Shown here in pieces: positions 1,528-58,676 of a DNA stretch of 64,000 nucleotides (position 1 is its first letter; every line of letters begins with the position of its first letter). Source of the stretch: a virus (lineage: Duplodnaviria; Caudoviricetes); IMG/VR virus record IMGVR_UViG_3300025011_000016. One strand, given 5' to 3'. Made by a program: the position numbers and the translations under genes. Below the pieces are notes generated by a model that had not been told where the DNA came from, searched no databases, and saw only the letters and a program-made list of their open reading frames with translations.

Positions 1528-4500
1528 ATGGCAGTAACACCACCAAAGAAAGTGGTCCCAAATTTATCATTGAAAGAAACATTGCAAGAGAAGGAACAAT
1601 TATATCATGGTAAAGATGATATATTCGGAATGACATTACTTACCAATCCAGGGTATATTAGTGCATCTCGAAACATTATGTTTACTTCTCATTTAAGACA
1701 ATTCGTAAATTTGAATAAACCGGATTTCCCAAAAGTATTAACGAATTATGAAAATCTTGTTGGTAAACATTCAACTGGATATTTCAAACCTAAGAATGAT
1801 TTAATCGTTGTGGATAAGATACCCAAGTTTAATGATATAAATGATGCAAATCATTTATATCTATTATTCTTATATGATAAGAAGACTAATACTTACTCCG
1901 TTATACAGAAAAAGATCGTTGAAGATCTAACAGAGAAGTTTGGTTTTAAATATAAGAATGATCTTATGGATTCTAAATCTATCGGAGATAAAATACAAGG
2001 AGGTAAAACATTATATTCATCCACATCATATGATGAAGATGATAATTATAACTATGGTAGAAATATTAAGTTTATGTATCTACTTGAAAACAATACTATT
2101 GAAGATGCCATAAAGTGCTCTGAATCGTTATCTAAAGAAATGACTTCGACTGAGGTTGAAACTGTAAAGATATCATTCAATGATAATGAAATCATGTGTA
2201 ATCTTTATGGCAACAATGATGAATACAAAGGTTTTCCAGATATTAATGAAAGGGTTAAAGATAAGATCATATGTGCCAAAAGAAGAATTCATAACAATCA
2301 ATTATTATTCGATCTAAAGAAATCAAATCTACGTAAGATTAATTTTATGTCAGATAACTTATTCTTTATTGATGGAAAGATTGTTGATATTACTATCTAT
2401 TCAAATAAACCTATTGGAGAAATTGAAGATAATATCTTTAATCATCAAATGTTAAAATACCTTAAAATGCAAAAAGAATTTTATACTAAAGTTTTAGATA
2501 GGTGTAAAAAGATAATTGCATCTGGAGCTAAATATTCAAATGAAATAAATTTCTATTATAAGAAAGCTAAGAATATATTAGACGATAATTACATGTACAA
2601 GGAAGAAGATAACAGTGTATTTAGTAATATGGTTATTGAATTCCTTGTTGAACGAGAAGTTCCTTTATCAGTAGGACAGAAGATTACTGGTCGTTACGGT
2701 AATATAATTGCTGTATTTTCTTTAATTGTCGGGGATATCCTTATAGCTTAAACTACTATTAGTAACAAGTTTAAGATTGGACAATTCGCAGCCAAGATTG
2801 TTAATAAACAATAAGGTTCAACGACTAGAGTGAAAACTCGTAGATTCGAAAGAATTGAAATGGGAAAACGATAGATTTTAATCTATTGAAGATATAGTCT
2901 AATATCCTAATGGAAGTTAGGGAAGTTCATAAGAGAACTGCATTATATAATAATGTGAATACTTGAATAAAGGTATTATAAGTCAGATCATACCAGATGA
3001 AGAAATGCCATTTCTTGAAACTGGTGAACGTGTCGATTGTATATTCAACTCCCTAAAATTTTGGGGCTTTATGTAGTGATATATAATGAAAACTACTTTA
3101 ATTGCGGGAAAATTCTTATGGCTTTATAATATAAAGATTGGACAATCCGCAGCCAAGATTGTTAGTAAACAATAAGGTTCAACGACTAGAGTGAGAACTC
3201 GTAGATATTAATATCGAAATTGGTAGAATCTTCTATATAGAAGATTATGAGATAGTCTGGTATCCTATATAACTATAGGGAAGTTCATAAGGGAACTGCA
3301 TTAATTAATAATTACTGTGAACACAACGAGGTGTGATAAATCGCTTAACTGAGAAGGTCCGGGCGATGTAAAACCTTTCTAATTGCGGGGACATTTGTTA
3401 ATTTCAATTTACCAAGTTAATATATTAATGGCTTAGTCCAATCAACTAAGGTATGGTAATAAGAATTGAAATTGAGTAATCCGCAGCCAAGATTGTTAAT
3501 AAACAATAAGGTTCAACGACTAGAGTGAAAACTCGTAGGTTTATTTATAAGCCGAAACGGAAGGCTGGTAATACTTAATATTATTAGAAGATATAGTCTA
3601 AAACATTTGTGAACTCATTTCAGTTATATGAGCAGTCAATAAATTTTATATGTAATCGCATAAGAGAAAGAATTGCGATAACAGAAGATATCTCTATAAA
3701 AGAACAAATGGTATTTAGTATTGTGGGTCATTTTAATCCTGAAGAACAAAGAAGACTTAGGATATATTATGATAAGTTATCAGATAATGGTAAGGATCAT
3801 TTCTTCGATGATATAGTCAAGCAAGGTATCTATATACACATTCCTCCACTTTGGGAAGACGTATGTTTATTCGATAAACTAAGAGCAATATATGCTGAAT
3901 TCACATGGATAAAACCATACTCAGTTTATGTGAATAAATTTGGAAGAAAGATCAAAATGATGAAGGATTTAATTGTCGGAGAAATGTATGTTCTTAAATT
4001 AAATCAAACTTCAAAGAAAGGTTTTTCAGCCAGATCCACTGGTTCGTTATCGAAGAGAGGAATTCCTATTTATTTATATGGGACTATATAGAGTAATCTA
4101 TATTGTGAAAACATTTTAATTGACGGGAAACTCCTTAGAACTTCTTAATTGAAGATTGGACAATCCGCAGCCAAGTCTCTTATAATAAGAGAAAGGTTCA
4201 ACGACTAATTTAGAGCTCAAGTGAGTGGATGAGAATCCTTTTAAATCAAAATAAATGTCATCCGTAAAAATAATAAATAACGGATGGTGATATAGTCTTG
4301 TATCCTATATAGTTATAGGGAAGTTCATAAGAGAACTGCATAGATTAACGACCTATGTGAAAGTATCGGAGAAATCAAATAAAGCAAAAACCCATCAAGA
4401 ATTATATCCACATACGCCTCAATTTGTAGGGGCTGTTGTATAGTAATATATAATGAATCTTTCTTAATTGACGGGAACCTTCTTAGAGCCTTATTTACTA

Positions 4501-5552
4501 AACTATAAGTATTATAGTGGCCAGAATAATTAACTGGGTATAGTAATAAAAATAAGGATTGGATAATCCGCAGCCAAGATTCTTATATAAGAATAAGGTT
4601 CAACGACTATCGAAAGCTTTTAATTAAGTTAGTAGAGTAAGCTCACAAGTCAATAATGGTGAGTTAAAACAGAAAGCTCCTAGAAATAGGATAAAGATAT
4701 AGTCTGCTATCTCAAGGAAACTTGAGGAGTTCATAATGGAACTGCATAAATTGACGATTTATGTGAACAAAAAAGGATACGAATTGGAGATTACTTATAT
4801 AGTTTCCCTGCATAGTAATATGCAGTTTAACAACTCTTTTAATTGACGGGAAACTCCTTAGTGCTTTATAATATAAAGATTGGACAATCCGCAGCCAAGC
4901 CTCTTTATGAGAGAAAGGTTCAACGACTAGAGCATTGCTCATAGATTTACAAGTTAATGGTAAGTCGAAATGGAGAGCTCTATTAATAAACTTTATTAAT
5001 AGATGAAGATATAGTCTGCACCTTAAAGAAATTTAAGGACAATCTTTTGAATTGTAATACATGTTACGAATGTATTTAACATATTGGCAGGAAAATATTA
5101 ACAGTATGATAGGTGTCGATCCAGACATCATAGCTAAACTACATTTATTCTATAGGTCTTCAGTTGTTGGAAGAAGAAACTTAGGTGAAACTTTGGCAAC
5201 TAGACTTAAGTTATTAAATGATTTTAAGTATTCTGCGGAATTCAAAAATAGAAATGTTGAAATTTTACAGGCATATTTAAAAGCTATGGGCGTAAAGATT
5301 GTATTTGAAAATGAGAATATGTATATTGAAATCTATACTGATCAGTTAGAAGAATATTCATCTGAGGGTAGGATATATATATGTACTAAACGTGAGTTTG
5401 AAGCCGTTCAGAGAGAAGCAGAAGTTCGCAGAGAGTTCCGTGAGGATAAGTGCTTAGTGGGAACTCATGCTGAAGTTGAAGCTATTATTCAAGCTCGTAT
5501 CAGCGATCTAAACAAACGAGATACTCATTATGTAATTGACATAAATTTATAA
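1528..5552 (+). CDS. rpoB: phage multisubunit RNA polymerase beta subunit, C-terminal half; 7 exons, about 755 aa after splicing (probably the non-virion enzyme)
   Basis: Exons 1528-2700, 2966-3054, 3329-3345, 3610-4067, 4369-4419, 4777-4791, 5088-5552 total 2268 nt, in frame. Joining restores GQKITGRYG|NKG, FNSL|GVINRL|N, SARSTG and TP|IRIGD|QE, matching beta motifs GDKxxGRHGNKG, NPLGVPSRMN, HARSTG and RFGEME. Confidence 0.9.
2701..2965 (+). ncRNA. group I intron, ORF-less (beta-C intron 1)
   Basis: 5' exon TACGGT|, IGS ATTGCTG. Core AATTGTCGGG / ATTCGCAGCCAAG / GTTCAACGACTA / AAGATATAGTCT. Ends ...AATACTTG. Confidence 0.9.
3055..3328 (+). ncRNA. group I intron, ORF-less (beta-C intron 2)
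   Basis: CTCCCT|AAAA pairs with TTTTGGGG (U-G at the splice site). Full P/Q/R/S. Ends ...ACACAACG. Confidence 0.9.
3346..3609 (+). ncRNA. group I intron, ORF-less, apparently lacking P9 (beta-C intron 3)
   Basis: ATCGCT| pairs with IGS GGCGAT. Full P/Q/R/S. Only about 10 nt (AAAACATTTG) separate S from the inferred terminal G. Confidence 0.75.
4068..4368 (+). ncRNA. group I intron, ORF-less (beta-C intron 4)
   Basis: TTCCT|AT pairs with ATGGGA. Full core. Ends ...AAGTATCG. Confidence 0.9.
4420..4776 (+). ncRNA. group I intron, ORF-less (beta-C intron 5)
   Basis: GCCT|C pairs with GGGGC. Full core with a longer P5 extension. Ends ...AAAAAAGG. Confidence 0.85.
4792..5087 (+). ncRNA. group I intron, ORF-less (beta-C intron 6)
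   Basis: GGAGAT|T pairs with AGTTTCC. Full core. The 3' site is G5087 (gives RIGDQE) or, less likely, G5090. Confidence 0.8.
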
Positions 5553-7130: not shown

Positions 7131-7186
7131 TCTCTTAATATCAAATTTAAATATATATTATATAGTTGGATTAAAAAATATATGGG

Positions 7187-10100
7187 GTGAAAGATATGGA
7201 TAAGCAAAATATAATATCACAATTAAGTGATATTCATCAAAGGTTATTAGAAAAAGAAGATTTTGTTGATACTATACAGAGACTAGAATTAATGAAGATC
7301 AATAGACTTATCAATTATCTTTTATATGCAATTACTGAATATGATCCAGATGACAAATTAATACTTCAATTATTAATAAGGATATTGCAAAATATCTTTA
7401 ATAATAGTAGTGAAATATCTCCTGTGACCGATGAGGATTATGATAAATTATATGAGTTAAACAGACAATTTAATAATGAAGAAATTGTTGGATCGTCTTT
7501 TAATAAATCCAATAAGATAATTTCAAGTCATAAATATCCTGATTTGAGAGGAACTCTAGATAAGGTCCATTTCATTAGAATTAAAGATAAGGGTAAAGAC
7601 AAACGAAGATCTATAGAAGATTTTATTAATACTGTAGAAAATAAAATAGGCAGATCTTTAACTAAGGATGAATCATTCGCCTATCTATTTCCTAAATGGG
7701 ATGGTATATCATGTATATTCGAATGTGATGAAAATGGTAATACCGATAAGGCATTATCTAGAGGTGATACTGATATAAATGAAGCGGTCGACTGGACTAA
7801 ATTGTTTAAAGGATCTAATTTCAAGTATGTGTTCGGTAATGATATAAATAGATTATTTGGTTTAAAAACAGAGATTGTAATGAGTCGTTCAAATTATAAA
7901 TTAATATGTGAAAAAGAAGGAGATCTTAAAAGTCCAAGGAGTGCCGTATCGTCTATATTAACTTCATTAACTGGTGACACATCGAATTTACCATATCTAA
8001 CTATAATACCTTTACAGACTCAGGAGTTTGAAACTAAATCTATATATACTCCAACTATAGTATATGATGAGTTTCCATACAGTGGAGGATATTTAAACAA
8101 TTTAGATGAGATCGAATTAAGAATGTTGGAGTTAAGAGAACGTATTTATACTGAAATGGATATAGATACAGATGGTGTGGTTTTTCGTTTAGCTGATCCA
8201 TATATACAAAAACTATTGGGTCGGGAAGATAAGATAAATAAATATGAGTTTGCATATAAATTCCCTCCAGAACAAAAGAAAACTATAATTAAAAATGTTA
8301 ATTTCTCAGTTGGTCTTTTAGGTTCAGTGCGACCAGTAGCAGTAATAAAACCTGTTACAATAAAAGGTAATACTATAACCAATATATCATTGGGTTCTAT
8401 AGATAGATTTGAAGAATTGGATTTAAGATTAGGTGATGAAGTTATAATAAAATATGATGTTATACCATACCTATCAATAGATTCAACATGTAGAAAAGGA
8501 GATGGGACTAAGTTTACAACTCCAACAAAATGTATATATTGTAAGGAAGAATTAGTTAAAGATCCCATATTGAAATGTATTAACGAAAAATGTAATTGTC
8601 GAATTATAGGTAAGATTCTAAACTATACTAGTAAGATGAGTATTTCAAATATGGATGTTGGAACAGTAACCACTTTATTTGAAAATAAGTTATTACGATC
8701 TATTGGTGATCTATATAAACTCAAAGATCATAAATCTGATATAGTTTCATTAAGTGGTTTTGGTGAAAAATCCTTTAATAATATTATTAAAGGTATTGAT
8801 TCAAGACGAGATGTTTATGATTATGAGTTATTGGGTTCATTGGGTATTACAGATATAGGTAGGAAAATGTTTAAGCGAATTTTAAATATATATTATATTG
8901 ATGAACTTATAGATTCAAGTACATGAGTCTCATTGCATAGTGATATGTAATAGTAATTACTTTAATTGCGGGGATCTCCTTAGAACTTAAAACACTCTAA
9001 AGTAATAATGTTTAAGATTGGACAATCCGCAGCCAAGATTCTTAATAAAGAATAAGGTTCAACGACTATCCCAGTGGATGTGAAATTCATCATTAGGAGT
9101 AGGGCTCAAGTGAGTTGGGTGAAATCCCATTAAATCGAAATGAGTAACCCCATTATAAACCATTATAATGGGTGAAGATATAGTCTGTGCTTTAAGGAAA
9201 CTTAAAGATATAACTTAATCGTAAGTCCTAAAAATTTCATTTATATATTATTACTATGATACTAACAAATAATATAAGAAAGGAGGTGAATTAAATTGAT
9301 TAAAACTTTTAAAACAAGAATACGACCGACGAAAGAACAAGAAGTATATTTAAACAAATGCTTTGGATACAGAAGGTTTATATATAATAATGCTTTAGAA
9401 TACTTTAATACGATCTTAGAATTCAATGGTAATAATCTGGATAAAACATTAAAGAAGTTCTTTAATAAGTTTGATTATATCACTAATATATATTCTAAGA
9501 AAGAAAAAGAACCTGAACTGGAATGGACTAGGGAATATAATAAAAACATAAAGGATCAGGTATCTAGTGATTTTAATATAGCTGTTAATAGATTCTTTAA
9601 CGATATTAAAAATAAGAAGCGATGTAAACTTCATTTTAAAAGAAAGATCCATGGAAATGGGTCTTTTAGAATATACAATAAAAATAAAGGTAATGTTAAA
9701 ATTCTTGATAAAAACATATTCTCTTTTATTATTAATAGAGAATATGGTCATATGTCATTAAAAACATATGAAGATATAAGCTTTTTATATCATCATGATA
9801 TAAAAACTATGTCTATTCGTATGAAGAATTTTAAATATTATGTTTCATTCACCTATGAATTGGACATTCCAAAGCATGATCATGAGAAAGACATCATAGG
9901 TATAGACTTAGGGATACATAATCCAGTAGTTTGTTTTGATGGAAAAGATGTCATAGCTCCTAAATTTCCGAAAGGAATTATTAAGAGACTAGAGAAGAAA
10001 GTCGATAAGTTTTCAACGATAGTTTCTAAGAAGAAATATGATAAACGTAATCCATCAAAGAACTATATAAAAGCGAGAACCAAGCTTAATGATATTTATA

Positions 10101-10952
10101 TTAAAATAACAAATATCAGAATGGATTATATCCAGAAGGTATCTACATTTTTAGCTAAAACTTATAAAAACGTTATAGTTGATGAATTTAGTTTTAAGGA
10201 TGTATTAACAGAGTCTGATGGTATTGAGCGTATAAATAGAGGTATACACAGAGTTGGTGCCTTTACATTTACCACAGTGTTAAAATATAAATGCCACTTT
10301 TATGGTAGTGAATATATTTTAGCATTACCTAACAGTACGAACACATGCTCTGTTTGTAATCATAAAGTTAAAACTAAAATGAAGTTATCTCAAAGAGTCT
10401 TTAATTGCCCACAATGTGGACATATAGATGATAGAGATAACAATGCGGCTATTAATATCTATAATACATTTAAACGATCTTTATTAACTAACGTAAATAA
10501 AGATTTCGCCGTTGGTCGGACGGTTCAAAGAACCTAAACGGTTAAGTTATTATGGTATCTAACGAATACCATTAACACGACAGTTATGCCTAAAGAATAA
10601 GATGGGAGGGCTGTTATTAATCCGTGGGATTAAAGAAATAACAGCCGTTAAAATTATTGAGGGCATAAAGTCGAATAAAAAACTTATTGATTTATTACGA
10701 TCCGAGATTAATTTAAGGAGGGATGTAAGACGATATACAATTAAAGTATGTTTTACTAAAGTTAGAGATAAAGATTTTGAGAAATTTCTTGAAAGTAAGA
10801 ATGTATTGGTTCTTGAAAAATATAATAAGGAGGTTGATGTGTTAATCATACCTTATAAAGATATTGATTCAGTCAAAGTTACTACTGCGAAGAAAGATGG
10901 TAAGGATATCGTAACCATCGATGAAGCTTATAAGATGTTTGGTTATAAGTAG
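7187..10952 (+). CDS. ligA: NAD-dependent DNA ligase, 2 exons (about 698 aa)
   Basis: KWDG adenylation motif, SRGD, DGVV, AYKFPP, a Cys4 zinc finger and HhH repeats in exon 1 (7187-8914). Exon 2 (10584-10952) continues ELID|LCLKNK... into a BRCT-like C-terminus. Confidence 0.92.
9242..9251 (+). promoter_or_regulatory. early-type promoter motif inside the ligA intron, upstream of tnpB
   Basis: TATATATTAT lies downstream of the ribozyme core, 45 nt before the tnpB start. Confidence 0.55.
9296..10537 (+). CDS. tnpB: TnpB RNA-guided nuclease (IS200/IS605/IS1341-type)
   Basis: N-terminal HTH (RIRPTKEQ...CFGYRRFIYN), RuvC-I GIDLG, RuvC-II VDE, CxxC-CxxC zinc finger, RuvC-III DRDNNAAINI. AAGGAGGT RBS with TTG start. 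Confidence 0.93.
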   Translation: MIKTFKTRIRPTKEQEVYLNKCFGYRRFIYNNALEYFNTILEFNGNNLDKTLKKFFNKFDYITNIYSKKEKEPELEWTREYNKNIKDQVSSDFNIAVNRFFNDIKNKKRCKLHFKRKIHGNGSFRIYNKNKGNVKILDKNIFSFIINREYGHMSLKTYEDISFLYHHDIKTMSIRMKNFKYYVSFTYELDIPKHDHEKDIIGIDLGIHNPVVCFDGKDVIAPKFPKGIIKRLEKKVDKFSTIVSKKKYDKRNPSKNYIKARTKLNDIYIKITNIRMDYIQKVSTFLAKTYKNVIVDEFSFKDVLTESDGIERINRGIHRVGAFTFTTVLKYKCHFYGSEYILALPNSTNTCSVCNHKVKTKMKLSQRVFNCPQCGHIDDRDNNAAINIYNTFKRSLLTNVNKDFAVGRTVQRT

Positions 10953-11525: not shown

Positions 11526-14500
11526 TTGAAGGACTTCATAAAGGATTATAACAACACCAATGAAGAAAATATCAATTTTGATCTAATGACACGATCACAT
11601 GATGCTGATTTAACAGAGTATGTTGTTAATACCTGTAAATCATTAGAAGTTCTTAAATATATTAAATTCATTGGTTATGAATATATAACTGATGAAACGA
11701 AAATAGATATTAATTACTATATGAGTACGAGGAAGAAAAGTAAGAAGAAAAATGAAACAAAGTATATGTACCTGCAAGATAGTCGATATGGTGAAATGCA
11801 TTTAAAGTTTCATTTAAAATGTAAAGATCGATCATTAACTTTTATCAAGAAGATATTATTACCAGTGGCTGATGATAATGATTATTATTTAGTTAAAGGT
11901 AAAAGACATTCATTATTATATCAACTAGTTGATAGTTCAACTTATACAACTAGACAGAATTTAACATTAAAATCATTAAGACCTATTACGATGAAACGAA
12001 CTGAAAGAATATATTCAGATACAGATGGTACTAAACATTCAGCTCCTTCATATGCAATTTATATCTTCAAGAAAGAAGTAGATATATTATTATTCTATTT
12101 TGCAAAGATAGGTGTGTCAAGAACTTTAGAATATTTTTCAGTAAATCATATAATGAAGTTTAAATCAGAAATTGAAGATACTATCAATAATATATATTTC
12201 TCAATTAATAGTAAATTACATGTAGAGATCAATAGACATTTCTTTGATAAATATCCATATGTTAAGAGTATAGTATTTATGATATTGAATATTTGCACTA
12301 ATAGATTAACTGTTGAAGATCTAGAAAATAAATCTTTCTGGATTGAAAAGATAGGCTCTATGAATGCGACTAATGCATATAACTATCTAGAAAAAGGTAC
12401 TAATACTTTAGTATTCTTTGATAGGTTATTAGATGAAACAACTAAGAATATTTTAAAAATTCATGATGAGAATAATAAAAATATATACTCTGTAATTCGT
12501 TGGATTAAATTATAGTCCCATTATAGAGTGATCTATATTGAAAACTTCTTTAATTGTCGGGAAACTCCTTAGTGCTTTATAAAGATAAAGATTGGACAAT
12601 CCGCAGCCAAGATTCTTATAATAGGAATAAGGTTCAACGACTAATTTAGAGCTCAAGTGAGTGAGTTTAATATAACTCTTAAATCGAAATAAGAAGCATC
12701 TTATATAAGATGATGATATAGTCTGTGCTTTATTGAAAGATAAAGAAAGATAACATCTTTACATTATCTAACGAATAATGTTAACACTCAGGTTTCAAAA
12801 CTTTAATGAATTACGTAAGAAAGATAATCTTGATCTTGCCAATAAACGTTTACGATGTAATGAACTCATCGCATCATTATTAACTAAAGCTTTTAGTACT
12901 AGAGTTGATAGAATTATTGGTTTTGGTAATAAAGTTACGTTAGATAACATTAAGGAAATATTCAAATTTCCAGGTGATGTAATAATGCAGCAATTGCATA
13001 AGTCAGGATTATTTAGATATGATATTTTATTGTCCATTATAGTAGTGATATTATAATGAATTTTCTTTAATTGGCGGGGACATTCTTAGGGCTTAAACTA
13101 CTAAAATATATCAGTGATGATATACTAACTAAGAGTAACTAACTTAGTATGAGTAATAATGTTTAAGATTGGACAATCCGCAGCTAAGCATCTTTATATA
13201 AACCCCCATAATTATTAATACGTTATACAATATAAAGGAGAGGTGTGACTGTAATGAAAGGACGATTGGGTGAAAATAAATGTCCCTCTTGTTACGAATA
13301 ATTATTCAATTAATTCTGAGGGATTTATTAGGAATGATAAATTCAATAGAATTTTGACCCGATGGAAAAATAATAGAGGTTATGAAGCTGTGCAATTATC
13401 ATGTATTGATGGTATAACAAGAAGTTTTACAATTCATAGATTGATGGCTCATCATTTTATACCAGGGTTCGACATTTCAGATAGATCCATTGTTGTTCAT
13501 CATAAGGACAGTGTAAATAAAACTAACTCATTAGATCTTCTAACCGTTTGTACTCAAAAAGAAAATATTAAGTATTCTATCGAAGAAGGTAATAAACCAA
13601 ATGGTGAAAAACATCCGATGGGTAAATTTCCAGATGAGCTGGCTAATAAAATAGTTGCCTTATTACAAAAAGAAAAAAGTACCGATGAAATATTTAATAT
13701 ATTAGATTTAGAAGTTAAGAAGAATATGCGTATATTTATAAATGATCTTAGAGCTAAACGAACCCGATTGTATTTAACTGAAGGTTTGGATTTAAAGAAG
13801 CATGTGCAGGAAAAACATGATATAAACTTGGTGAAGAGGGTGATTCGTTATATGAAGATAGGTATGACGGTAGATAATATAATCAATATGATTGGAAAAG
13901 GAAATGCTGGTAGGCATGAAAGGGAGAGATACTCCTCGTTAATACAAAGGATACATGACGGGAAAGCGTGGGGAAGATTATATAAAGATGATAGTTCAAC
14001 GACTAATGATGACTACATGGTTATTAAAATTAAAATGTAGTTATAGATTTACAAGCTAATGGTAAATCGAAATGGGGAACACCTCATATTAAGTTGATAT
14101 GAGATGAAGATATAGTCTGGTATCCTAATATTAAATTAGGGAAGTTCATAAGAGAACTGGGTTTCGTTGCGGAAAACCTGAACCTGGGGATAAAATTAAC
14201 GATCTCGACTTCTTTAGTAAGTTCAAATATACCCTAAATTTTGGGGCGTTATAGAGTGATCTATATAGATAAAATTCTTTAATTGTCGGGGAACTCCTTA
14301 GAACTTCTTAATTGAAGATTGGACAATCCGCAGCCAAGATTGTTGATAAACAATAAGGTTCAACGACTAGAGTATAACTCGTAGATATATAAGTTAATGA
14401 TATATCGAAATAAGTTTAATCTTCTTATAGAAGATTGTGATATAGTCTTGTATCCTATATAACATTAGGGAAGTTCATTTGAGAACTGTATAGAGTTACG

Positions 14501-15746
14501 ATCTATATGAAAGTATACGTAAAGGACCAAATTCCTTGGGTTTTAATAAATAGGCCCATGATCTTTTAATTGCGGGAAACTCCTTAGTACTTCTATATGA
14601 AGATTGGACAATCCGCAGCCAAAATTGTTGATAAACAATAAGGTTCAACGACTAGAGTATAACTCGTAGATATATAAGTTAATGATATATCGAAATATAG
14701 AACTATCGAAAGATAAAGAGATAGTCTGGTATCCTAATTAACATTAGGGAAGTTCACAGGAGAACTGCATTATTTTACGAATAATGTGAACTCATCGAAT
14801 AAAAATGATAATAATATCTCAGTTAAATATCGCGGCATACACCCGAGTTATCTGGCCCGCGTAGATATTAACGTTTGCGGTGAACGTAGAAATATAATTG
14901 CCGCCTTTTCTTTAATTGACGGGAACTCCCTTATAGCTTAAACTACTAATAGTAACAAGTTTAAGATTGGACAATCCGCAGCCAAGATTGTTATAAAACA
15001 ATAAGGTTCAACGACTAGAGTGATAACTCGTAGATTCGAAAGAATTGAAATGGGAAAACGATAGAGTTATTCTATTGAAGATATAGTCTAATATCCTAAT
15101 ATAAGTTAGGGAAGTTCATAAGAGAACTGCATAGATTGATAAACTGTGTGAATAAATGAATTCAGACCCTAGAAATAAATTTGGGGCAATATCGAGTGAT
15201 CGTTATTGTTAAACTACCTTGACTGCGGGAAACTTCTTAGAGCTTTAAATTGATAAAGATTGAACAATCCGCACCCGATATTCTATATAATAGAATAAAG
15301 TTCAACGACTAGAGCATATTTGCTCGTAGATATAAAGTTATATCGAAATTAGTAGAATCTCTTAGGAGATTATGAGATAGTCTGGTATCCTATATAACTA
15401 TAGGGAAGTTCATAAGAGAACTGTACTATTTAACGAATAGTATGAACACACGGGAACTAGTGGTATTATAACACCATTCTGTAAAACTAGTGGATTATTC
15501 TTCGATGGTGCATTTGAACCAGAAAGTTTTAAATATGATTTTGATAAGGAGATAACTGACTTTAGAAAATCAACTAGTAATAACATAATTGTTGATACTC
15601 ACTATGATAATATATCTGAGTATTTTGAAGGTAGAGAACGATTTAAAGAAATGAATAGTCGAATCAAAATATCAGAGATTGAACGAACTGATAATAGTAA
15701 GTATTATATTAAAATTAAGCTTGCTAGTAATACTGATGATATATAA
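11526..15746 (+). CDS. rpoB: phage multisubunit RNA polymerase beta subunit, N-terminal half; 7 exons, about 556 aa after splicing
   Basis: Exons 11526-12505, 12792-13023, 14189-14235, 14520-14541, 14798-14881, 15159-15170, 15453-15746 total 1671 nt, in frame. YYLVKGKRHSLLYQL corresponds to FIINGxERVxVSQL. Joining gives KYTL|KGPNSLG and RGIHPSYLARVDINVCG|NSDP|GTSG (beta GPGG and [23 protein letters not shown]). Confidence 0.88.
12506..12791 (+). ncRNA. group I intron, ORF-less (beta-N intron 1); closest 'empty' relative of the two TnpB introns
   Basis: GGAT|TA pairs with TAGTCC. Full core. The 3' domain GTCTGTGCTTTA...CTAACGA...TAACACTCAG parallels that of the TnpB introns. Confidence 0.9.
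13024..14188 (+). mobile_element. group I intron carrying an HNH endonuclease in P6 (beta-N intron 2)
   Basis: TGAT|A pairs with TTGTC. Q at ~13176 and R at ~13994 are separated by the ORF, with arms CATCTTTATA / TATAAAGATG. Ends ...AACCTGGG. Confidence 0.85.
13270..14040 (+). CDS. intron-encoded HNH homing endonuclease
   Basis: GYEAVQL, IHRLMAHHF, VHHKD..NK.N..L, QKEN. Its last codons overlap the intron R element. Confidence 0.8.
   Translation: MKINVPLVTNNYSINSEGFIRNDKFNRILTRWKNNRGYEAVQLSCIDGITRSFTIHRLMAHHFIPGFDISDRSIVVHHKDSVNKTNSLDLLTVCTQKENIKYSIEEGNKPNGEKHPMGKFPDELANKIVALLQKEKSTDEIFNILDLEVKKNMRIFINDLRAKRTRLYLTEGLDLKKHVQEKHDINLVKRVIRYMKIGMTVDNIINMIGKGNAGRHERERYSSLIQRIHDGKAWGRLYKDDSSTTNDDYMVIKIKM
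14236..14519 (+). ncRNA. group I intron, ORF-less (beta-N intron 3)
   Basis: CCCT|AAA pairs with TTTGGGG. Full core. Ends ...AGTATACG. Confidence 0.9.
14542..14797 (+). ncRNA. group I intron, ORF-less (beta-N intron 4)
   Basis: GGGT|TT pairs with AGGCCC. Full core. Ends ...CTCATCG. Confidence 0.88.
14882..15158 (+). ncRNA. group I intron, ORF-less (beta-N intron 5)
   Basis: GCGGT|GA pairs with TTGCCGC. Full core. Ends ...AATAAATG. Confidence 0.9.
15171..15452 (+). ncRNA. group I intron, ORF-less (beta-N intron 6)
   Basis: CCCT|AG pairs with TTGGGG. Variant core ACTGCGGG / ATCCGCACCCG / GTTCAACGACTA / GAGATAGTCT. Ends ...ACACACG. Confidence 0.88.
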
Positions 15747-24989: not shown

Positions 24990-27900
24990 ATGGATTTCAT
25001 GAAAGGTATTAATAAAGAGAATGTCATGTTAATTAATATAATATATCATAATAAGAGAAAAGAGAATAATTATAATGATTACTTAGATATTATCACTAAA
25101 GATTTAACCACAGGTGAAAAAATACTTACAACTATCGAGAATCCTGAAATGGATATATATTTTACAAAAGAGGAGCATAGAAATTATGACTATAATAAGA
25201 ACTTTATGGAAATTGATAAGACTGATAGACATAGATTTAAATATAAAGATCTAACTAGATCCATAGCTAAAATGGCTGGGCCTAGTTATGAGAACTTCAT
25301 TAAACAATCTATAGAAACACAAAATTATGCTAGAATAAATAATATCCATAAATATAAATATGTATTTGGATCTGATGTTGATATTGAAAATTGGTATAGA
25401 ATTCAATGGTTATTAAATTATGATAATAATAAACCTAAATCCGTAACTAAGCTATTTCTCGACATAGAAGTCGACGGTCGGGATGTACCTGGATTCCCCA
25501 GAGATGGTGAAGTGCCAATTAATGCTGTAACGATAGTAGATGAATTTAGTAATCAATCATTTACATTCTTATTGGATAATCCATTAAACCCTCAAATAGA
25601 AGATTTTAAAAATGATGTGGAATCTTTTGTTGAAGAACTACATAATGATTTTGATGAATCATATGGGGAATTAAAATATAACTTATTTATTTATGATGAT
25701 GAAGTTCAAATGTTAATAGATGTATTTAAATTGATTAACACTCTGAACCGAGATTTCCTATTAGTGTGGAATATGAGTAAAATGATGCTCCTTATAAAGG
25801 CGACTTTATAAGAAAATTTCTTTAACTGCTGGAAACTCCTTAGAGCCTTTATTATCAGAGTATAATAATATAAAGGATTGGGCAATCAGCAATCAAGTTC
25901 AATAACAAACTAAGTTTTATTACATTTATTAGAGGAGGGTAAAACATGTATATAGTAATACGCAAAGATAAAGAAGTATTTAAATTATCAACTTATCCTG
26001 GGATTAAAAAAGATATGTATTCTATTAGTAACTACGGGTCTATACGTAATAATGTGACAAACGAGATATTTTTTCCAACATCGAGAAACTCAGCAGGTTA
26101 TGTACACACTTCTTTATGTACAGAATCATTTAAAGTTTACACTAGTGTTTTGGTATCACGTTTAGTTGCTTGGGAATTTTGTGATGGTTATGATAAGGAA
26201 CTAAATAGGGTGGAAGTCAATCATAAAGATATCAACAGGGCTAATAATTATTATGAGAATTTAGAATGGGTGACTCGGGGAGAAAATACTAAATTTGCCT
26301 ACGTGCATGGCAATCGTAAGGTGATAGTGCCAGATTCTAGGGGACCAAGAGCAAAGATACGCGGATCATTAAATCCCAAGAATGTTTTCAGTGAAGAGTT
26401 TGTACATGAACTCTGTCAGTTATTCACGGACGGTAAGAGCACTAAAGAGATATTAAAAATATTCAATACGAGTAAAAAATTAAATACACAACTCTATTCA
26501 TTACTCATGACTTTGAAACATAGAAAAGGATGGGGACATATTACGGAAAAATATGTATATTGATATTTGTTATTGAAAAGATTCAACGACTAGAGTGAGA
26601 ACTCGTAGACCCTTTTCATGGGGTGGACATAATAAGTCCTTCGCGAAATGGGAAACATCTCCGATGTGGAGATGAAGATATAGTCTGATATCTTAGGGAA
26701 ATCCTAAGGAAGTTCATAAGAGAACTGCGTAGTATAAAAAACTATGTGAACTGTTTGTTCGATGTGCCGTACATGATCGCACGTATGTTAGAATTAGGAA
26801 TGAATCCTGTTGAAGTGATGTGTCATAAAGATTTTAAAATACAAGAAGCTTTTTTCAAAAAAGATCTTCGAAATTTTATGATAGCTAATAAAGGAGATTA
26901 TTTTAAGATATCATCTTATACTGTATATTTAGACCAAATGATAGTATATGCCAGTTTAAGAAAAGGAGGTAGTCAGTTACGATCAAATGCTCTTAGCTAC
27001 ATTGCTCAAGTTGAAATTGGTGATGAAAAATTAGACTATTCTGAAGATGCTAATATCAAAACTTTACCATATGTTAATTACAAGAAATTCGTTAAATACA
27101 ATATCAAAGACGTTTTACTACAACTTGGAATTGAGAGAAAAACTCATGATATTGATAATGTTTATTTAAGATCGTATACAAATGTAACAGCTTATTCAAA
27201 AGTATTTAGACAAACGGTATTTTATAGTGCCGGTGATTCTTTAATTGACGGGAAACTCCTTATAGCTTCTTAATGAAGATTGGACAATCCGCAGCCAAGA
27301 TTCTTATAATAAGAATAAGGTTCAACGACTAGAGTATAACTCGTAGGTTTAATAACTGAAATGGGAAACCGATAGAATTTATTCTATTGAAGATATAGTC
27401 TATTATCCTAAAGTAATTTAGGGAAGTTCATAAGAGAACTACATTATCTTACAAATAATGTGAATTATAGGTTCTTAAAAAACAGAGCATTTTTAGAGTT
27501 TTATAAACAAGGTTTGATTATTGGTAATAATACCAATATTGATTATGGATTACCTCCTCAGATAGCTAAAGAAAAAGATGAGGATGATGAGAAATTTGCA
27601 GGTGCATTAGTTGGTGATCCTGAATTGAATAGTAAGACTGGTATAATGATGTTAGGAACTCCAAGTAAATACATCTATGATAACGTTGTAGATATGGATA
27701 GCTTTGTCCCATTATGTAGTAATATGTAATGAAAACTTCTTTAATTGACGGGGAACTCCTTAGAACTTCTTAATCGAAGATTGGACAATCCGCAGCCAAG
27801 ATTCTTATTATATAGAATAAGGCTCAACGACTATCCCATTGGTATTGAAATATACAACAGGAGTAGGGCTCAAATGAGTGGGTGAAATTCCCTTAAATCG

Positions 27901-29373: not shown

Positions 29374-32300
29374 ATGGCTAATCCCAAAGATAATGATTCG
29401 AATTTAGTCAAAAAAGTAGAAAAACCTTTGGCTAAATTAAATACTCTATTTAATGATATCATGGATACTATTTCGTTTAACACTTTTAATACGGATAGTA
29501 AGCATGAGAAAGAATTACAGAAATTTGCTAAGGAAATTGATGAGGTTGTTTCCCAAGAAATTAAGAACTTAACCACATTTACGGGAGATGACATATCAAC
29601 TTTCTTAGTAAAATTATTTAATGAATATGATAATAATGCCAATACTGACTTTAAGAATATCGAAGATATATTCAATACAAAAGACAATAGTGTTTTTCAA
29701 TTCTTTCAAGATAAATATAAAAATGTAAATTTATTATATGATGATCTAAATATGATCTGTAGTAAATTATCGGAATTAAATGAAGCCGTCTTAGCGACTA
29801 GAGATGCTATTGTAACTTCAGACGATATAGGTCAATCGATAACGCGTACATTGAAATTTAAAGAAGTTGTTGAAAGTAATGAGAATACAAGTTATATAAA
29901 GCTTATTGAGAATATGGAAAAGAAATTTAAATTAACTCAGAAACTTAAGAATCATATCATTCCAAAAACACTTCAATATGGTAAGTATTATGCGTATATA
30001 ATACCATATGCTAAATTATTTGAAAGATATTACAATGATAAGGTAAAAGATGATAGAATGGTTTCCTCTTTAGAGTCATCAGTAACACCTGACTTTATAA
30101 CTGAAGTTAAAGAAAGTGTAAATGCTATATCTAAAACGAATATATTACCTAACGATATGTCTAAAGCACTAAAAGGTTATTTAGAAGGTATTGAAGTTCA
30201 TAATGATGAGATCGCAATTCCAGTTATTGAAGGAATTGATATCAGTATATTATTAGAGGATATGTTAGATGATCCTGATGAATTTAAATCAAATGTTGAA
30301 AAAACATTAAAGAATTCCACTAAGAAATCTAAAGGAAAAACTACTACCGATATATTTCCAGAATCAACTATTAATATGAAAAAATCGAATAAAGATAGTG
30401 ATTTTGTTAATATAAAAGGTTGTTATGTTAAGCTAATAGAACCTAGAAAAATAATACCTGTAAAGATACTTGATCAAGTAATTGGGTATTATTTTATTCA
30501 TGATACAGCATATGATACTCATAAATCCCCATTTACTACAACTATTAAAATGAATCCCGCTAATAATACCAATGATGCTGAAAATATGTTCTTATCTAAA
30601 ATAACAGATAAAGTTGTTAAAGCATTCGATAAAAGTTTTTTAGAAAAGAATATTAAGTTTAAAGAACTTATTATGAATGCTTTAACATATAATGATATTT
30701 ACAAAAAGCAACTAAAATTTCAATTTATACCTAAGGATTATATCCAAGAATTTACCGTTAATGAAGATGAGGAAGGTGAAGGTACATCTATATTAATGCC
30801 TTCATTGTTTTATGCTAAATTATACTTAGCGTTACTTATCTTTAAGATGATGTCTATCATCACTAAATCTAATGATACCAAAGTTAATTATGTAAAACAA
30901 TCTGGAATTGATACTAATGTTGTTAATAAGGTTCAAGAAGTTGCTCGGTCAATTAAGGATCGTCAGGTAAATTTCATGGACATATTGAATTATAATAGTA
31001 TTATCTCTAAGATTGGAGCTAATAAGGAGCTCTTTATTCCTGTGGGCCGCTCTGGGGAACGTGGACTTGAATTTGACATTATTTCAGGGCAAGAGATTTC
31101 CCTGAACACAGAACTAATGGAAATGCTAAAATCGAGCTTCATTAGCTTGACTGGAGTCCCCTCGGTAAAATAATATATAGCCGATGATAAACTTCTTTAA
31201 TTGACGGGAATATCCTCAGAGCTTTAAACTACTAAACTAGTATAGTGATATGCTAAGTGGCTAGGAGTAATTAACCTAGGTATAGTAATAATGTTTAAGA
31301 TTGGATAATCCGCAACCAAGATTCTAATGTTATTAAATATTATTTCTTATATTCATCATAACAGAGCTATAAATATAATTATATGAAAGGATTGTGAGTA
31401 ATGCGAAATATAGTTGAAATATTTAAACCGATTTATATTTATGGTGAACGCACTAATTATTTAGTTAGTGATTGGGGGACTGTAATGAATGGGACTACCA
31501 AGAAGGAGTTAAAACAACGTCTTAATGCTGATAACTATTATGAAGTTACATTATGGGTAAATAATAAAGCCGTTAATCGAAGGATACATAGATTGGTGGC
31601 CGAAACCTTTCTTGAGAATCCAAATAATTATCCTGTAGTAAATCATAAAAAAGGTGGATTAACAGAGGATGGGCAATGGAATAATTGTGTTTTAAACTTA
31701 GAACATACAACTATTTCATATAATACAAAACATGCATATGATACGGGTTTAAAGAACCCTTTAGTTGGAGAGGAATGTGGGTTTAATATATATCCGGAAC
31801 CATTAATAGATAAAATTATCAATAAACTATTAATGGCTATACCACCGGACATTATAGCCGATGAACTTGGGGTAAAAGTATCATTAGTTACAAGTGTGCG
31901 TGATGGATATTCATGGAAACATAAAATTAAAGGTCTTGTTTTTCCTAAACCTGCTTTTGCCCACACTAATGAATATACATATGAATTAAAATTTAAAATT
32001 TTGAATTTATTATATGTGGGTAAAACAACAAAGGAAATTATAGAAAGACTTGATCTTCCGAAAAAAAATAAATTTAAAAGTTTAATCGACAATATAAGAC
32101 GACGAAATATGGAGAGGATGATAATAAATATTAGATGAAGGCCCAACGACTATTGAAAGATATGTTTTCCGTTCAACATATTAAGTAATGTAGATATACA
32201 AGTCAATTAATGGTATATCGAAATATGAGGCAATCCCTTTAAATATAAGGGTTTGAAGATATAGTCTGGTATCCTATAGAAATATAGGGAAGTTCATAAT

Positions 32301-39295: not shown

Positions 39296-42200
39296 TTATG
39301 AATTGAGTTCATCGAAGAAATCCAATGGTATACCTGTTTCTGATGACATATCATCATCAAAATTTTCAACATAATTTTTTGGTGGAATTAACATATCACT
39401 ATGCTTCATTTCCCTACGAGCTTTTTGGATTTCTTCAATTAATTTTATATTATAATCGTCTTGAGTTTTAACACCAACATCTTTAAAATATCCCTTGCTA
39501 TCATCCGAGAGTTCTTCATATAGTTCATCATATGTTAACCCTTTATTACGTTTTTCTTCGTCGGGTATATCTCCCCTGACAAAACCGAATCTATGAAGAT
39601 TATTTCCATGATAGAATACATATAGAACTATTAGATATGACATTATTGAATCGTCATGAAAAGAAGTCCCTGCAGCTATTTTACCAGTTTTAGTTTTAAC
39701 TAGTCGTAATAGATCATCAATAATATTACAGGTAACAAATTTATCTTTAAATTCATTCACATGTCGTTCAAGTAAACTCCTGTCGTGTTAGTAGTATTCG
39801 TTAGATACCACGATAACTTAACCGTTTAGGTTCTTTGAACCGTCCGACCAACGGCGAAATCTTTATTTACGTTAGTTAATAAAGATAGTTTAAATGTATT
39901 ATAAATATTAATAGCCGCATTGTTATCTCTATCATCTATATGTCCACATTGTGGGCAATTAAAGACTCTTTGAGATAACTTCATTTTAGTTTTAACTTTA
40001 TGATTACAAACAGAGCATGTAATGGTACTATTCGGTTCTGCTAAAATATATTCACTACCATAAAAACGACATTTATATTTTAACACCTGCGTAAACGTAA
40101 AGGCTCCAACTCTATGAATACCCCTATTAATACGCTTAATACCATCAGACTCTGTTAATAAATCTTTAAAACTAAATTCATCAACTACTACGTTTCTATA
40201 GGTCTTGGCTAAGAATGTAGATACCTTCTGAATATAATCCATTCTAATATTCACTATTTTGGCGTGAATATCATTAAGCTTGGTTCTCGCTTTTATATAG
40301 TTCTTTGATGGATTACGTTTATCATATTTCTTCTTAGAAACTATTTCCGAAAGCTTATCAGTTTTCTTCTCTAGTTTCTTAATCTTCCCTTTCGGAAATT
40401 TAGGATTTATGATATCTTTTCCATCAAAACAAACTACTGGATTATGTATCCCTAGGTCTATACCTATAGTATTTTTCTCATGGTTATGACTTGGATTATC
40501 TATTTCATATGTGAATGATACATAATATTTAAAATTCTCCATACTAATACTCATTGTTTTCATCTCATGATGATATAAGAAGCTTATATCTTCATATGTT
40601 TTTAATTCCATATGCCCATATTCTCTATTAATAATAAAAGAGAATTTATTTTTATCGAGAATCTTAACAGCAGCTTGCTTAATATATATTCTAAAAGAAC
40701 CATTTCCATGAATCTTTCTTTTGAAATGTAGTTTACATCGCTGCTTATTTTTAATATCTTTAAAGAACTTATTAACGGCTAAGTTAACATCACTAACCGT
40801 TTCATTTTTTATAGACTTATTATATTCTCCAGTCCATTCAAATCCAGGTTCCTTTTCTTTCTTAGAATATATATGAGTAATAAAATCAAATTTATCAAAG
40901 AACTTCCTTAAATCTTTATCTACAATATTACCATTAAATTCTAGGATCTTATTAAAATACTCTAAAGTATTATTATATACAAATCGTCTATAACCAAAGC
41001 ATTTGTTTAAATATGTTACTTGTTCTTTAGTTGGTCGTATTCTTGTTTTAAAAGTCTTAATCAATTTTTATTCACCTCCTTTCTTATATTATTTGTTAAA
41101 GGTATAATATAATTGTATTAGGAATGAATTAGTAAGACTTACGGTTAAGTTATTCTCTAAGTTTCCTTAAAGCACAGACTATATCTTCACCCATTATAAT
41201 AATAATTATAATGGGGCCACCCATTTCGATTTAAGGGATTCTCACCCACTCACTTGAGCCCTACTCCTTTACGGATAGTCGTTGAACCTAAATCTATAAA
41301 TAGATCATTGGCTGCAGATTGTCCAATCTTAAACATTGTTACTTTGTTGTAGTTTAAGCACTAAGGAGTTTCCCGCAATTAAAGTAGTTTCAATTACATA
41401 TTACTATGCAACGTGACTCATACATGAATCATAACTTCTCTGGACTTATCTCCGGTCCAAACACCATATAGTTTTCGTCTAGCTGATTCTAATTTTAACA
41501 TACCTTCTGAGTCAAGTTTATCATCAAGTCCGGATGAAACAAGATCTTTATCATTATCAAAGTATAAATTAGAGCGTATATCTGTTAATTTTAAAGAATC
41601 CATTATGGCTTCACCATTAAAATTACGTTCTATACATAATATAGACTTAGGGATATGATGTTTGATAAGAGTAGTTATAAATTTAATAGTCTGAACTACA
41701 CCTATATATGGTGATTTAAATTCAGCAACAGGTTTTATAGTATATGGGTCAAATACCGTAACGGCAGTATTATCTTTACCATAACCATTAGAGGTATCAA
41801 CTCCAACGAAGTATATCCTATCTTTCTTCAAGGGTTCATATATATCTAATTTAAATAGTTTATTTATAAATATTTCTTCCTTAATTGGCTTCTTCATTTC
41901 TTCAATAGTGGCCAAATCTTCTGCGGGGAAAGGAGATTCGGATGAACCCCTCATTCTTTGAAGGAAGACCTCTCTTTTAATCTTTACTGGATTATTCAGT
42001 AAGATCTGACAGATACTTTTAAACCATATTTCATCTTTACCAAGTTGTTGATATTGGTATTCAATATAGACGATTCCACTTTCAGAATTAATTGCAATAT
42101 ATTCATCTAAATCTTCTTTAGTCCAATCATAAAACTTTTCAGTCCAACGACAAGTTGTAGCGATAATCTTTAATGCGTCCTGACCTGCTGAAGTATCTAA

Positions 42201-55854: not shown

Positions 55855-58676
55855 TTATGGTCTGGATTTAAAGAAAGAATCTATATAAGAAGCTTCTCTC
55901 TTTTTAAATGTTAATGGATTAATAAGTTGTCGTCCTAATGCCTGGAAGGATAAACCTATTAAGACAGAAGGATGTTTTTCTAATGCGGATTCAACAGTCA
56001 TTATTTGATACTCAGCTTTTTCACCATACTTACTGAAATCCGGTCTATATAAGATATCCTTACTGTGTCTTAATAGAGGGTGTATCAACAATTCACCATG
56101 AACCGCATCTGAATCAATTTTAGATTCGATTAATAGATCTAACATCTTTTGACATAACTCATCAACAGATCTACATCCAACATGATCACTTCTATTAAGT
56201 AAATACATGATGTTATAAAGAGGACGTGTCAATTCGTTATTCTCAATTTCTAATACGAATATCTTAGAATCATCATCAATTTTAGCAAAGTCAATTTCAT
56301 AAGCGTCTTTATGAGATTTACTCTTATTCATTAACTCAACTATATCTGGAGATATATATAAGTCTTTCTGATTCAATTCCATACATTCTATAATCTCACC
56401 AGATTTTTTATGTTTAACATGGAATATAGTTACAAATGTATTGAAATCAGTATCATCATATTCATTAATACTAATAATATTTTTATTAATAATAACTAAA
56501 GAATAATCATTTAAGTTAATGTCGTCATTAGTTATATTAAGAAGAATTTCATTTGCATTAATAGTGAAAAACTTATAGAAATCAGCATTGAATTCTATCT
56601 TTTCCGAAACTGTTGTTAGTAGGTGTTTAGTTGATAATACTCTCTGAGATACAGGTTCTGTTATTCTTGATCCAGCATATCCACCAATAGAGATACCTTT
56701 ATTGGTATGATATAGTTGCCCATAACAATGCCAACATATTCCATCTTTAGCTGAACAAGTTGCTGGAGATTTAACATAGATAGTTTTACCAACAATATTT
56801 TCCTCATGACCTTCAATGACGTTATAATCTCTAGTATTCTCAAGACGATAATATCTTCCCTGTAATCGTCTTAAATGCTCTTTAGTTTTGATTTCGTATT
56901 GAATTGAATGAATGCTATTACATGTTTTAACAGTAGGACTTAATTTTATTCCTGATGTTAAAAGCATTACTAATCGTGCAAACGTATTTTCATATAGATC
57001 GTAAATCCATACAGTTCTCTAATGAACTTCCCTATAACTATATAGGATACAAGACTATATCACCATCCAATGATGGATGATTCTTATTTCAGTTTAACTA
57101 TAAACTTACGAGCTTTTACTCTAGTCGTTGAACCTTTCTCTTAGTAAGAGTATTGGCTGCGGATCGTCCAATCTTCAATTAAGAAGTTCTAAGGAGTTCC
57201 CCGTCAATTAAAGAAATTTTCTCATTATATATTACTATATAATGCCACCTGTAATTGATGGCCAGATCTACCCATACGTAAGTTGACATTATTCGTTACA
57301 TAATGTAGTCCACAAAGAACTCCCTATATTTCTATAGGATACCAGACTATCTCTTCTCATTTAATTAAATGAGTCTCTCCATTTCGATTTAAGAGTTTTC
57401 ACACCCACTCACTTTGAGCTCTAAATTAGTCGTTGAACCTTTCTCTTATTATAAAGAGACTTGGCTGCGGATTATCCAATCTTAAACATTATTACATTAG
57501 TAGTTTAAGCAGTAAGGAACTTCCCGTCAATTAAAAGAGAAATGGCTAAAAATTAACCAGTTTATTCATAATTAATGATTTTCTTCCACCACGATACTTT
57601 CACATAGGTCGTTAATCCATGCAGTTCTCTTATGAACTTCCCTAATATTTATTAGGATACAAGACTATATCACAATCTTCTATATAGAAGATTCCATTAA
57701 TTTCGATATAACTTTATATCTACGAGTCACGCTCTAGTCGTTGAACCTTATTCTTATATAAGAATCTTGGCTGCGGATTGTCCAATCTTCAATTAGAAGT
57801 TCTAAGGAGTTTCCCGTCAATTAAAATAGTTTTACAACATAAGTCCACCTATGCCGCCCCAAGTTGTTTTAGGGAGTCAATATAGTAATTAGTGATGTTG
57901 GATAATCCCCCTACTATGAAGTTACTATTGATCGGATGGGGGATTGTATTTCCAGAAAGATCCGGCTTCAGCCCCCCACTAATTGCGAACTCTGCTAACT
58001 GTTTATGTTTAATCCCAGCACCAGATTTTAGTATTGGCTGTAGCATATTTCCAACAGGATCATTTTCTAAAATGGCAACTTGCTCATGCATTAGATCATC
58101 TAGTAATGATTCTATTTCCGTAGGTTGAAGTCCGTCTGGAATAACCGTTCGTATGATTTCGTTAAATCTAGGTATACGTTCGCTTACGTCAATAAACGTC
58201 TCAATATTAATTGATAACCCCAATATCATATTAAAGTCAGTTGATATTCTAGATAGATTGTGGATCATATCTGCAATTACTTTATTCATTTTAGTATTAC
58301 TGATAATCTTTCTAAATGGTAAAACTATCTTTCTATCAACATATGATTTGATATAATCTGCCGATATCTTACTACAATCAACTATATAAGATTCATTCAA
58401 TCTATCAATATAACCCAACTTCATCATCGGTGACCAAAACATATAATTTGTTAAGAAATGTCTTAATTGGAGAGTATGAATTTGTTCTCCTTCTTTATCT
58501 GAAAATTTAAAATACACTGGGCATGTTCTCAACTCCTTAACTTCAAACCCTCGTTTTAAATAATCATAGAACAACTCTAGATTAGCTTTGTAGTCCTTCT
58601 TAGTAGCCATTAAGTTTGAGATAATAAAGATCTTATTGGATAGCTCACTGATTATTTTTCCTACATCCGAATCCAA
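55855..58676 (-). CDS. rpoC: phage multisubunit RNA polymerase beta' subunit, C-terminal half; 4 exons, about 662 aa
   Basis: Exons 58676-57871, 57591-57556, 57276-57258, 56982-55855 total 1989 nt, in frame. SGAG..Q...SGGLKPD, bridge-helix region YYIDSL|GGRKSLIMNKLV|MGRSGH|FARL, zinc site C..DGICWHCYG, trigger loop ITEPVSQRVLSTKH. Confidence 0.9.
56983..57257 (-). ncRNA. group I intron, ORF-less (beta' intron 3)
   Basis: GCCAT| pairs with GTGGC. Full core. Ends ...AAATACG. Confidence 0.9.
57277..57555 (-). ncRNA. group I intron, ORF-less (beta' intron 2)
   Basis: TGGT|TA pairs with TAGCCA. Full core. Ends ...ACTTACG. Confidence 0.9.
57592..57870 (-). ncRNA. group I intron, ORF-less (beta' intron 1)
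   Basis: CCCT|AA pairs with TTGGGG. Full core. Ends ...AAGTATCG. Confidence 0.9.

Follow-up and report, generated by a model that had tools for sequence, protein, structure and literature searches.

The source phage is a jumbo phage of 248-272 kb seen in groundwater metagenomes, and 64,000 nt of it (the whole stretch of DNA analysed, hereafter the window) were available around the ligase gene. Split RNA polymerase subunits are encoded by the phage, with several beta-like subunit genes matching PHROGs 3295, 2943 and 3015, and the annotated phages with the most similar ligases are Staphylococcus jumbo phages and Bacillus phage AR9. The ligase gene is interrupted by an intron that carries a tnpB gene (Table 1). 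Intron boundaries were set by motif identity with sister introns and by the restored ligase protein; removal of the intron joins exon 1 to exon 2 without a gap relative to intronless ligases, and the element is a group I intron whose predicted splicing restores the host gene. Its TnpB is of the IS605 type, and the guide scaffold terminates at the 3' splice site. The Rfam search placed 18 group I introns in the window, and the ligase TnpB intron was not among the hits at the gathering threshold. No tnpA was found within the element or in three other phage records. No close relatives of this TnpB family, or of the sister family described below, were found in IMG/VR protein scans, nor was a diverged ortholog of the ligase TnpB copy found.

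Table 1. Features of the ligase locus and of the related terL element (window coordinates)
Feature	Position	Strand	Remarks
Early promoter motif of host ligase gene	7152..7168	+	+1 G7168; 19.4 bits; gives the read-through transcript
NAD-dependent DNA ligase, exon 1	7187..8914	+	Pfam PF01653, PF03120; colinear at the junction with intronless relatives
Perfect early motif inside exon 1	8884..8903	+	+1 G8903; 19.0 bits
P1 of ligase intron	8912-8929	+	
Group I intron with tnpB, 1669 nt	8915..10583	+	Based on sequence, paralog alignments and restored frame
P7 strands of ligase intron	9064-9068 and 9181-9185	+	
P9.0 5' strand	9186..9188	+	Pairs with 10580-10582; would be absent from internal transcripts
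P9 hairpin	9190..9207	+	
P9.1 5' strand	9210..9222	+	13-bp long-range helix closing the ORF loop; would be absent from internal transcripts
Predicted RBS-sequestering hairpin	9234..9287	+	9234-9252 with 9268-9287
AR9-type early (virion RNA polymerase) promoter motif	9242..9258	+	Core 9242-9251; predicted start G9258
Late-promoter core AACA	9264..9276	+	AACA 9264-9267; possible start 9274 or 9276
tnpB Shine-Dalgarno	9281..9288	+	
tnpB, 413 aa	9296..10537	+	RuvC D204, E297, D381 and zinc finger present
Nexus-like hairpin of guide scaffold	10508..10524	+	Pseudoknot strand 1 at 10515-10518
P9.1 3' strand	10538..10550	+	Inside guide scaffold; overlaps small hairpin 10531-10543
Terminal hairpin of scaffold / right end	10552..10572	+	Compensatory change between copies
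Pseudoknot strand 2, P9.0 3' strand and terminal G	10578..10583	+	10578-10581, 10580-10582, 10583
Terminal G of ligase intron	10583	+	
Ligase exon 2	10584..10952	+	Predicted guide spans the first 16-20 nt (placement inferred from the IStron literature)
Paralogous TnpB intron in terL	39780..41427	-	8-mer at 41104-41111 is a hairpin arm

An earlier sequence-only reading of this DNA had described an exact motif between the ribozyme and tnpB that was common to 11 other genes. This was borne out: the 10-mer lies between P9 and the tnpB Shine-Dalgarno (SD), and 11 other copies are intergenic and aimed at genes, with a purine at 7 nt downstream in all 11. Matches to the 10-mer in the window numbered 15, against 3.5 +/- 1.7 expected, and three of them lie in coding DNA (8887 in sense, 12196 and 31179 in antisense orientation). 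Scored with a promoter matrix built from 16 sites of this phage (leave-one-out range of the training sites 7.5-21.3 bits), the intron site reached 18.2 bits, a value comparable to those of the 11 intergenic sites and ranking 12th in 128 kb. It has the 10-base core, 6-nt spacer and purine at +1 of AR9 early promoters, a consensus for which 33 of 34 predicted promoters were confirmed in AR9 (PMC5312081). The three bases upstream of the core are ATT in the intron and AAA in the AR9 consensus; since ATT, AAT, AAG, AAC and GTT all occur at that place in the phage's own intergenic sites, the difference limits identity with AR9 and not with the phage's own motif. The flanks of the intron motif are nearly letter-for-letter those of other sites of the phage (L008:1144, L002:3527), and no host sigma-70 promoter was found within 8850-9320. 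Judged by these features, transcription is quite likely to start at 9258.

The early motif inside exon 1 has its predicted start 12 nt before the 5' splice site. It is identical in the intronless relative L125 (position 3194) and is therefore older than the intron, so that an interpretation of the motif at 8887 as an adaptation to the intron was rejected. It is either a coding coincidence or an old internal promoter, and RNA from it could be splicing-competent with a 12-nt exon. L125 also holds the closest intronless ligase, in which the predicted target-adjacent motif ends in C in place of T and the first 12 guide bases have one mismatch, and which may for these reasons escape cleavage.

The strands relevant to splicing and to the guide scaffold lie on both sides of tnpB. 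The P9.0 3' strand overlaps the second pseudoknot strand, as the earlier reading had held, and the pseudoknot covaries: the ligase family has GUCG/CGAC where the sister family has GUUG/UAAC, and copies of a single Staphylococcus family differ by GUC/GAC and GGU/ACC. A further family has a P9.0 of 6 bp that spans the entire pseudoknot strand. The conflict between pseudoknot and 3' splice site is already established in IStrons. The P9.1 helix had a pairing probability of 0.97 when the full transcript was folded, and other families have helices of 13-28 bp and unrelated sequence at the same position; AU-rich inverted repeats are known in IStrons (PMC4227781). Addition of the P9.1 5' segment lowered nexus pairing from 0.27 to 0.03 in a local model. 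The folding includes neither pseudoknot nor protein, and even by itself the scaffold folds only marginally in it. In the ligase and terL copies the tnpB frame stops adjoining the P9.1 3' strand, the ligase frame having run through the nexus hairpin to reach it. Codons 8-12 of tnpB (9317-9333) are also complementary to the nexus and pseudoknot strand 1 (10505-10517, -17.1 kcal/mol); this partner ranked first in the ligase, terL and L010 copies and close to first in L008, was not the best in the helicase copy and was not common to other families. Such a predicted pairing could couple guide folding to translation.

A hairpin over the tnpB ribosome-binding site (RBS) had no place in the earlier reading, and neither had the long-range P9.1 helix or the close precedents in T4 and AR9. 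In the predicted folds of six families the layout is the same, with the 5' arm upstream of the transcription start and the 3' arm over the SD, and the position of the hairpin slides between copies in the alignment. Fold scores were z of about -2.4 in the terL, L008 and L010 copies and -5.0 in the sister family; the ligase copy is weak (-6.5 kcal/mol, z -0.95) and no better than its shuffles. In 15 of the 17 copies, drawn from six families, opening of the SD was at least 4.5 kcal/mol costlier in the read-through than in the internal RNA; the copies are mutually dependent, and the real sample is the six families. Such a difference was seen in 4 of 27 ordinary genes and in neither of two free-standing tnpB genes that have early promoters. 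Of the 17 copies, the ligase copy (4.7 versus 2.5) is one of the two that fall short. From this modelling, the hairpin probably gates tnpB translation across the family as a whole; gating in the ligase copy itself is possible and is put forward with some doubt.

Five paralogs of the element are present in the phage, in the ligase, terL and helicase genes and in L010 and L008, the last without a ribozyme. A 26-nt block (9263-9288) is identical in the ligase and terL introns, in agreement with the conservation noted earlier for both. The exact early motif occurs in the ligase copy alone; the other four have no early 10-base core and scored between -0.3 and 3.9 bits on the early matrix (3-4 bits for the helicase, L008 and L010 copies). 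The 8-mer that had been offered as the terL counterpart of the motif is better explained as a hairpin arm. Its score is -0.3 bits, which is equalled or exceeded at 393 sites in the window; the ligase motif aligns 6 nt upstream of it; and it is the reverse complement of part of the conserved block, with which it folds as the inner stem of the hairpin, while the outer stem covers the SD. A role as a weak early promoter was also rejected, sites with only the 8-mer not being enriched before genes. An antisense early-like 8-mer in the conserved block has two mismatches and in two copies no purine start.

The late-promoter core AACA stands at the start of the conserved block and is invariant in the five paralogs, although it lies mostly in the hairpin loop and the five bases before the block vary. 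In AR9 this core (-11 to -8) is essential and is followed after 6 nt by TA or TG (PMC5312081, PMC5449584), and the late motif is in use in the present phage, with 23 upstream hits at the 6 nt spacing against 7 and 3. In the introns the core is off register, with TA at 5 or 7 nt, so that late transcription could plausibly, though not canonically, begin at 9274 or 9276. Other spacing or bases were found at 17 of 118 non-early start sites of AR9 (PMC5312081), and substitutions at +1 strongly lowered transcription there (PMC5449584). This off-register core is the sole motif in the four non-ligase paralogs. The suggestion that TnpB expression is wired into the early programme thus fits the ligase copy and is not supported for the family, whose other members in this phage have the late core; late or sigma-70 motifs are used in other families. 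That some internal start exists in the TnpB-intron family is nonetheless very likely from the predicted sites.

Each of the six TnpB-intron families that were sampled from jumbo phages carries, between P9 and tnpB, a motif of canonical early or late type (chance 0.005-0.09 per family by dinucleotide shuffles), and in the six the P9.0 5' strand, the P9.1 5' strand and the anti-SD strand all lie upstream of the predicted start. In 3 of 3 copies of the sister TnpB family (36-38% identity; support 100/99), the same place is taken by the exact early motif with G at +1. Four more families, with canonical late or early motifs, came from Staphylococcus phages Machias and LY01 and from a gut jumbo phage; one of them has the early motif in copy L119 and the late motif in copy L117. 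Machias also shows an excess of the late motif ahead of its genes (8 against at most 3). Some TnpB introns of apparently host-polymerase phages have sigma-70 sites at this place (12/12 in L036 and L085, 11/12 in L095), and in other such introns no sigma-70 site was present at the equivalent position. Outside the two TnpB introns, a canonical motif was found at the equivalent place in 1 of 18 other S-element sites. The predicted layout is convergently supported across phage families. When aligned, the sister-family TnpB (L007, L013, L014; P0005, P0135) has no evident RuvC-II glutamate and may be altered or nuclease-dead, and the promoter, hairpin and scaffold are predicted to be kept all the same.

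On balance, the favoured reading is that the ligase-intron segment is a T4-style expression cassette for the intron nuclease TnpB, from which one DNA would yield two RNAs. Read-through ligase mRNA would carry the ribozyme plus three upstream strands and would be biased to splice: P9.0 would pair with the bases preceding the terminal G, P9.1 (9210-9222 with 10538-10550) would loop out the ORF and override part of the guide scaffold, and the anti-SD strand would hide the tnpB ribosome site and keep ribosomes off the 3' intron structure. Since the tnpB frames end beside the P9.1 3' strand, ribosomes on the read-through RNA would disturb this helix. The internal transcript would start at G9258 with the virion polymerase or at about 9274-9276 with the non-virion polymerase, would lack the P9.0, P9.1 and anti-SD strands, and would have its SD open. 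With a start downstream of the whole ribozyme it could not splice; this much of the sequence-only reading stands, and the layout recurs in six families. Scaffold and exon-2 guide would then stay joined on the unspliced RNA, supplying TnpB and guide in cis. The chance that most functional guide derives from the internal RNA is judged about even. Motif positions and scores, strand complementarity, recurrence across families and predicted SD occlusion are the parts of this scheme that were computed or read from sequence.

The earlier reading had gone on to make the separation of splicing from guide production the purpose of the promoter, and for this the case is weaker than was claimed. Early promoters also precede free-standing tnpB genes (L115 and L116), so promoter capture needs no intron, and in CboIStron TnpB supplied in trans represses splicing (bioRxiv 10.1101/2023.11.20.567912), so that internal expression could worsen the conflict; for these two reasons the separation may be a by-product. 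The host ligase promoter (7152) is moreover early as well, so there would be no separation in time as there is in T4.

Two other explanations were weighed against the favoured reading. The promoter may be real and yet be the ordinary means of expressing a mobile ORF in a phage with its own polymerases, with TnpB cutting guide from either transcript and with RNA stability and TnpB binding still deciding between splicing and guide, as they do in bacterial IStrons. The promoters of L115 and L116 agree with this, as do the late motifs of intron HNH genes (window 31401, Machias 58063). So does the CboIStron work, in which a single transcript was enough for active TnpB-guide complexes and cleavage (bioRxiv 10.1101/2023.11.20.567912), and so does the statement in PMC13521648 that bacterial IStron tnpA and tnpB are under one native promoter and that the trade-off persists. 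Set against these points, intron-borne copies have the anti-SD strand, which is missing from the two free-standing tnpB genes that have early promoters, and the predicted start is downstream of the P9.0 and P9.1 strands in 6 of 6 families, though there is little other room for it. This explanation is considered unlikely.

Still less probable is that the early motif of the ligase copy is a chance product of an AT-rich hairpin arm, the family promoter then being the invariant AACA core, or read-through and excised intron RNA being the only sources of tnpB expression. The early motif is missing from four of the five paralogs, AACA is invariant amid varying flanks, and the 3.5 or so chance matches expected per window can be set beside the three found in coding DNA. 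The hairpin arm supplies 8 of the 10 core bases; with these fixed by the stem, an exact match could arise by chance at about 0.06 per copy. One unrelated intron family (L095, L045, L052) has the 10-mer within a helix and a pyrimidine at +1. The sister family, however, retains the exact motif with G at +1, which favours retention over a lucky extension of a stem arm, and the flanks of the ligase motif are nearly identical to those of the phage's other sites; a motif born by chance would, besides, probably still be read by the polymerase.

The cassette reading has close precedents. [quoted passage not shown] As in T4, a nuclease ORF lies in a peripheral loop of a group I intron with its own phage promoter inside the intron, the predicted RBS hairpin belongs to the read-through RNA alone, and the end of the ORF runs into intron structure. 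Unlike in T4, TnpB is RNA-guided, so that the internal RNA would also carry the guide and escape guide-severing splicing; the T4 promoters are later than those of the host genes whereas the ligase-intron motif is early like its host's; and the hairpin is weaker in the ligase element. AR9 has the same 10-base core, 6-nt spacer and purine start and the same AACA late core, and one of its early promoters lies inside the g189 intron ahead of the intron ORF g190 (PMC5312081, PMC5449584). The ligase phage differs in the ATT upstream of the core, in the off-register late core and in being an uncultured phage whose starts are predicted from sequence.

Group A (IS200/IS605-type) IStrons, such as CdISt1 (PMC4227781) and CboIStron (bioRxiv 10.1101/2023.11.20.567912; PMC13521648), likewise combine an intron, tnpB and a scaffold ending at the 3' splice site, with insertion after a GAT-ending site, an AU-rich inverted repeat around the ORF and a pseudoknot overlapping 3' splice site bases. 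Relative to these, the phage element is without tnpA and resides in a lytic jumbo phage; its targets (TAGAT, ATGAT, TTGAT, TAGAT) are close but not identical to TTGAT/ATTAT/TTTAT, its terminus is ACAG rather than TCAG, and its ORF follows directly on P9 and the P9.1 5' strand rather than on P9.2. The balance between splicing and guide is explained by RNA stability and TnpB binding in the IStron papers (PMC4227781, bioRxiv 10.1101/2023.11.20.567912, PMC13521648), and keyword searches and selected sections of the same three contained no mapped internal start site or RBS hairpin. Literature searches on internal promoters in TnpB elements, and on jumbo phages with TnpB and introns, returned nothing relevant. 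An internal promoter as such is not new, since bacterial IStrons are said to have a native tnpA/tnpB promoter; the T4-type cassette and the IStron are both known parts, and what would be new is the I-TevI logic of T4 applied to an IStron, of which these searches gave no description.

Recent IStron work (PMC13521648) concludes that high splicing and an active guide may be mutually exclusive and asks whether different solutions have arisen in other lineages. The elements studied here sit in essential genes of a lytic phage (ligase, terminase), where poor splicing should be costly, and the two-transcript design, if true, would be such a solution. As a speculation judged less likely than not, phage IStrons may repeatedly have escaped the bacterial type of trade-off through alternative starts, with P9.0, P9.1 and the anti-SD strand holding read-through RNA to splicing despite the presence of TnpB, a promoter of any class available in the phage giving a dedicated nuclease-plus-guide RNA, and both functions working at high efficiency in essential genes. 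The cultured Staphylococcus jumbo phages Machias and LY01 have the same layout, with canonical promoters and hairpins stronger than that of the ligase copy. The layout also suggests that a native level of control may be missed when mini-IStrons are assayed under a synthetic promoter placed upstream.

Several further observations were made on the phage. At L008:4880-6300 the ribozyme has been lost upstream of the S element, with P9, the promoter region, tnpB and the scaffold kept, and this copy resembles a DNA version of the internal transcript. L001 joins the helicase 5' flank to the 3' flank of the L010 copy and is a misassembly or a paralog recombinant. Over their last 200 nt (window 10360-10583 and 39780-40000), the ligase and terL elements are 96-99% identical, against about 85% elsewhere, which suggests gene conversion between the two copies. 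Two HNH endonuclease genes in the window appear to be intron-borne; one (31401-32138) has a canonical late motif 41 nt upstream, as the intron HNH gene of Machias also has a late motif, and the other (25946-26563) has neither motif. Tandem group I introns separated by very short exons occur in RNA polymerase genes (window 2600-5100, 14100-15150 and 57000-57900). An ORF-less intron (window 12716-12791) ends in TCAG, and the loop of the terminal hairpin at its 3' end is the one seen in the TnpB introns; many other introns in the window end in a hairpin related to the terminal hairpin of the TnpB introns.
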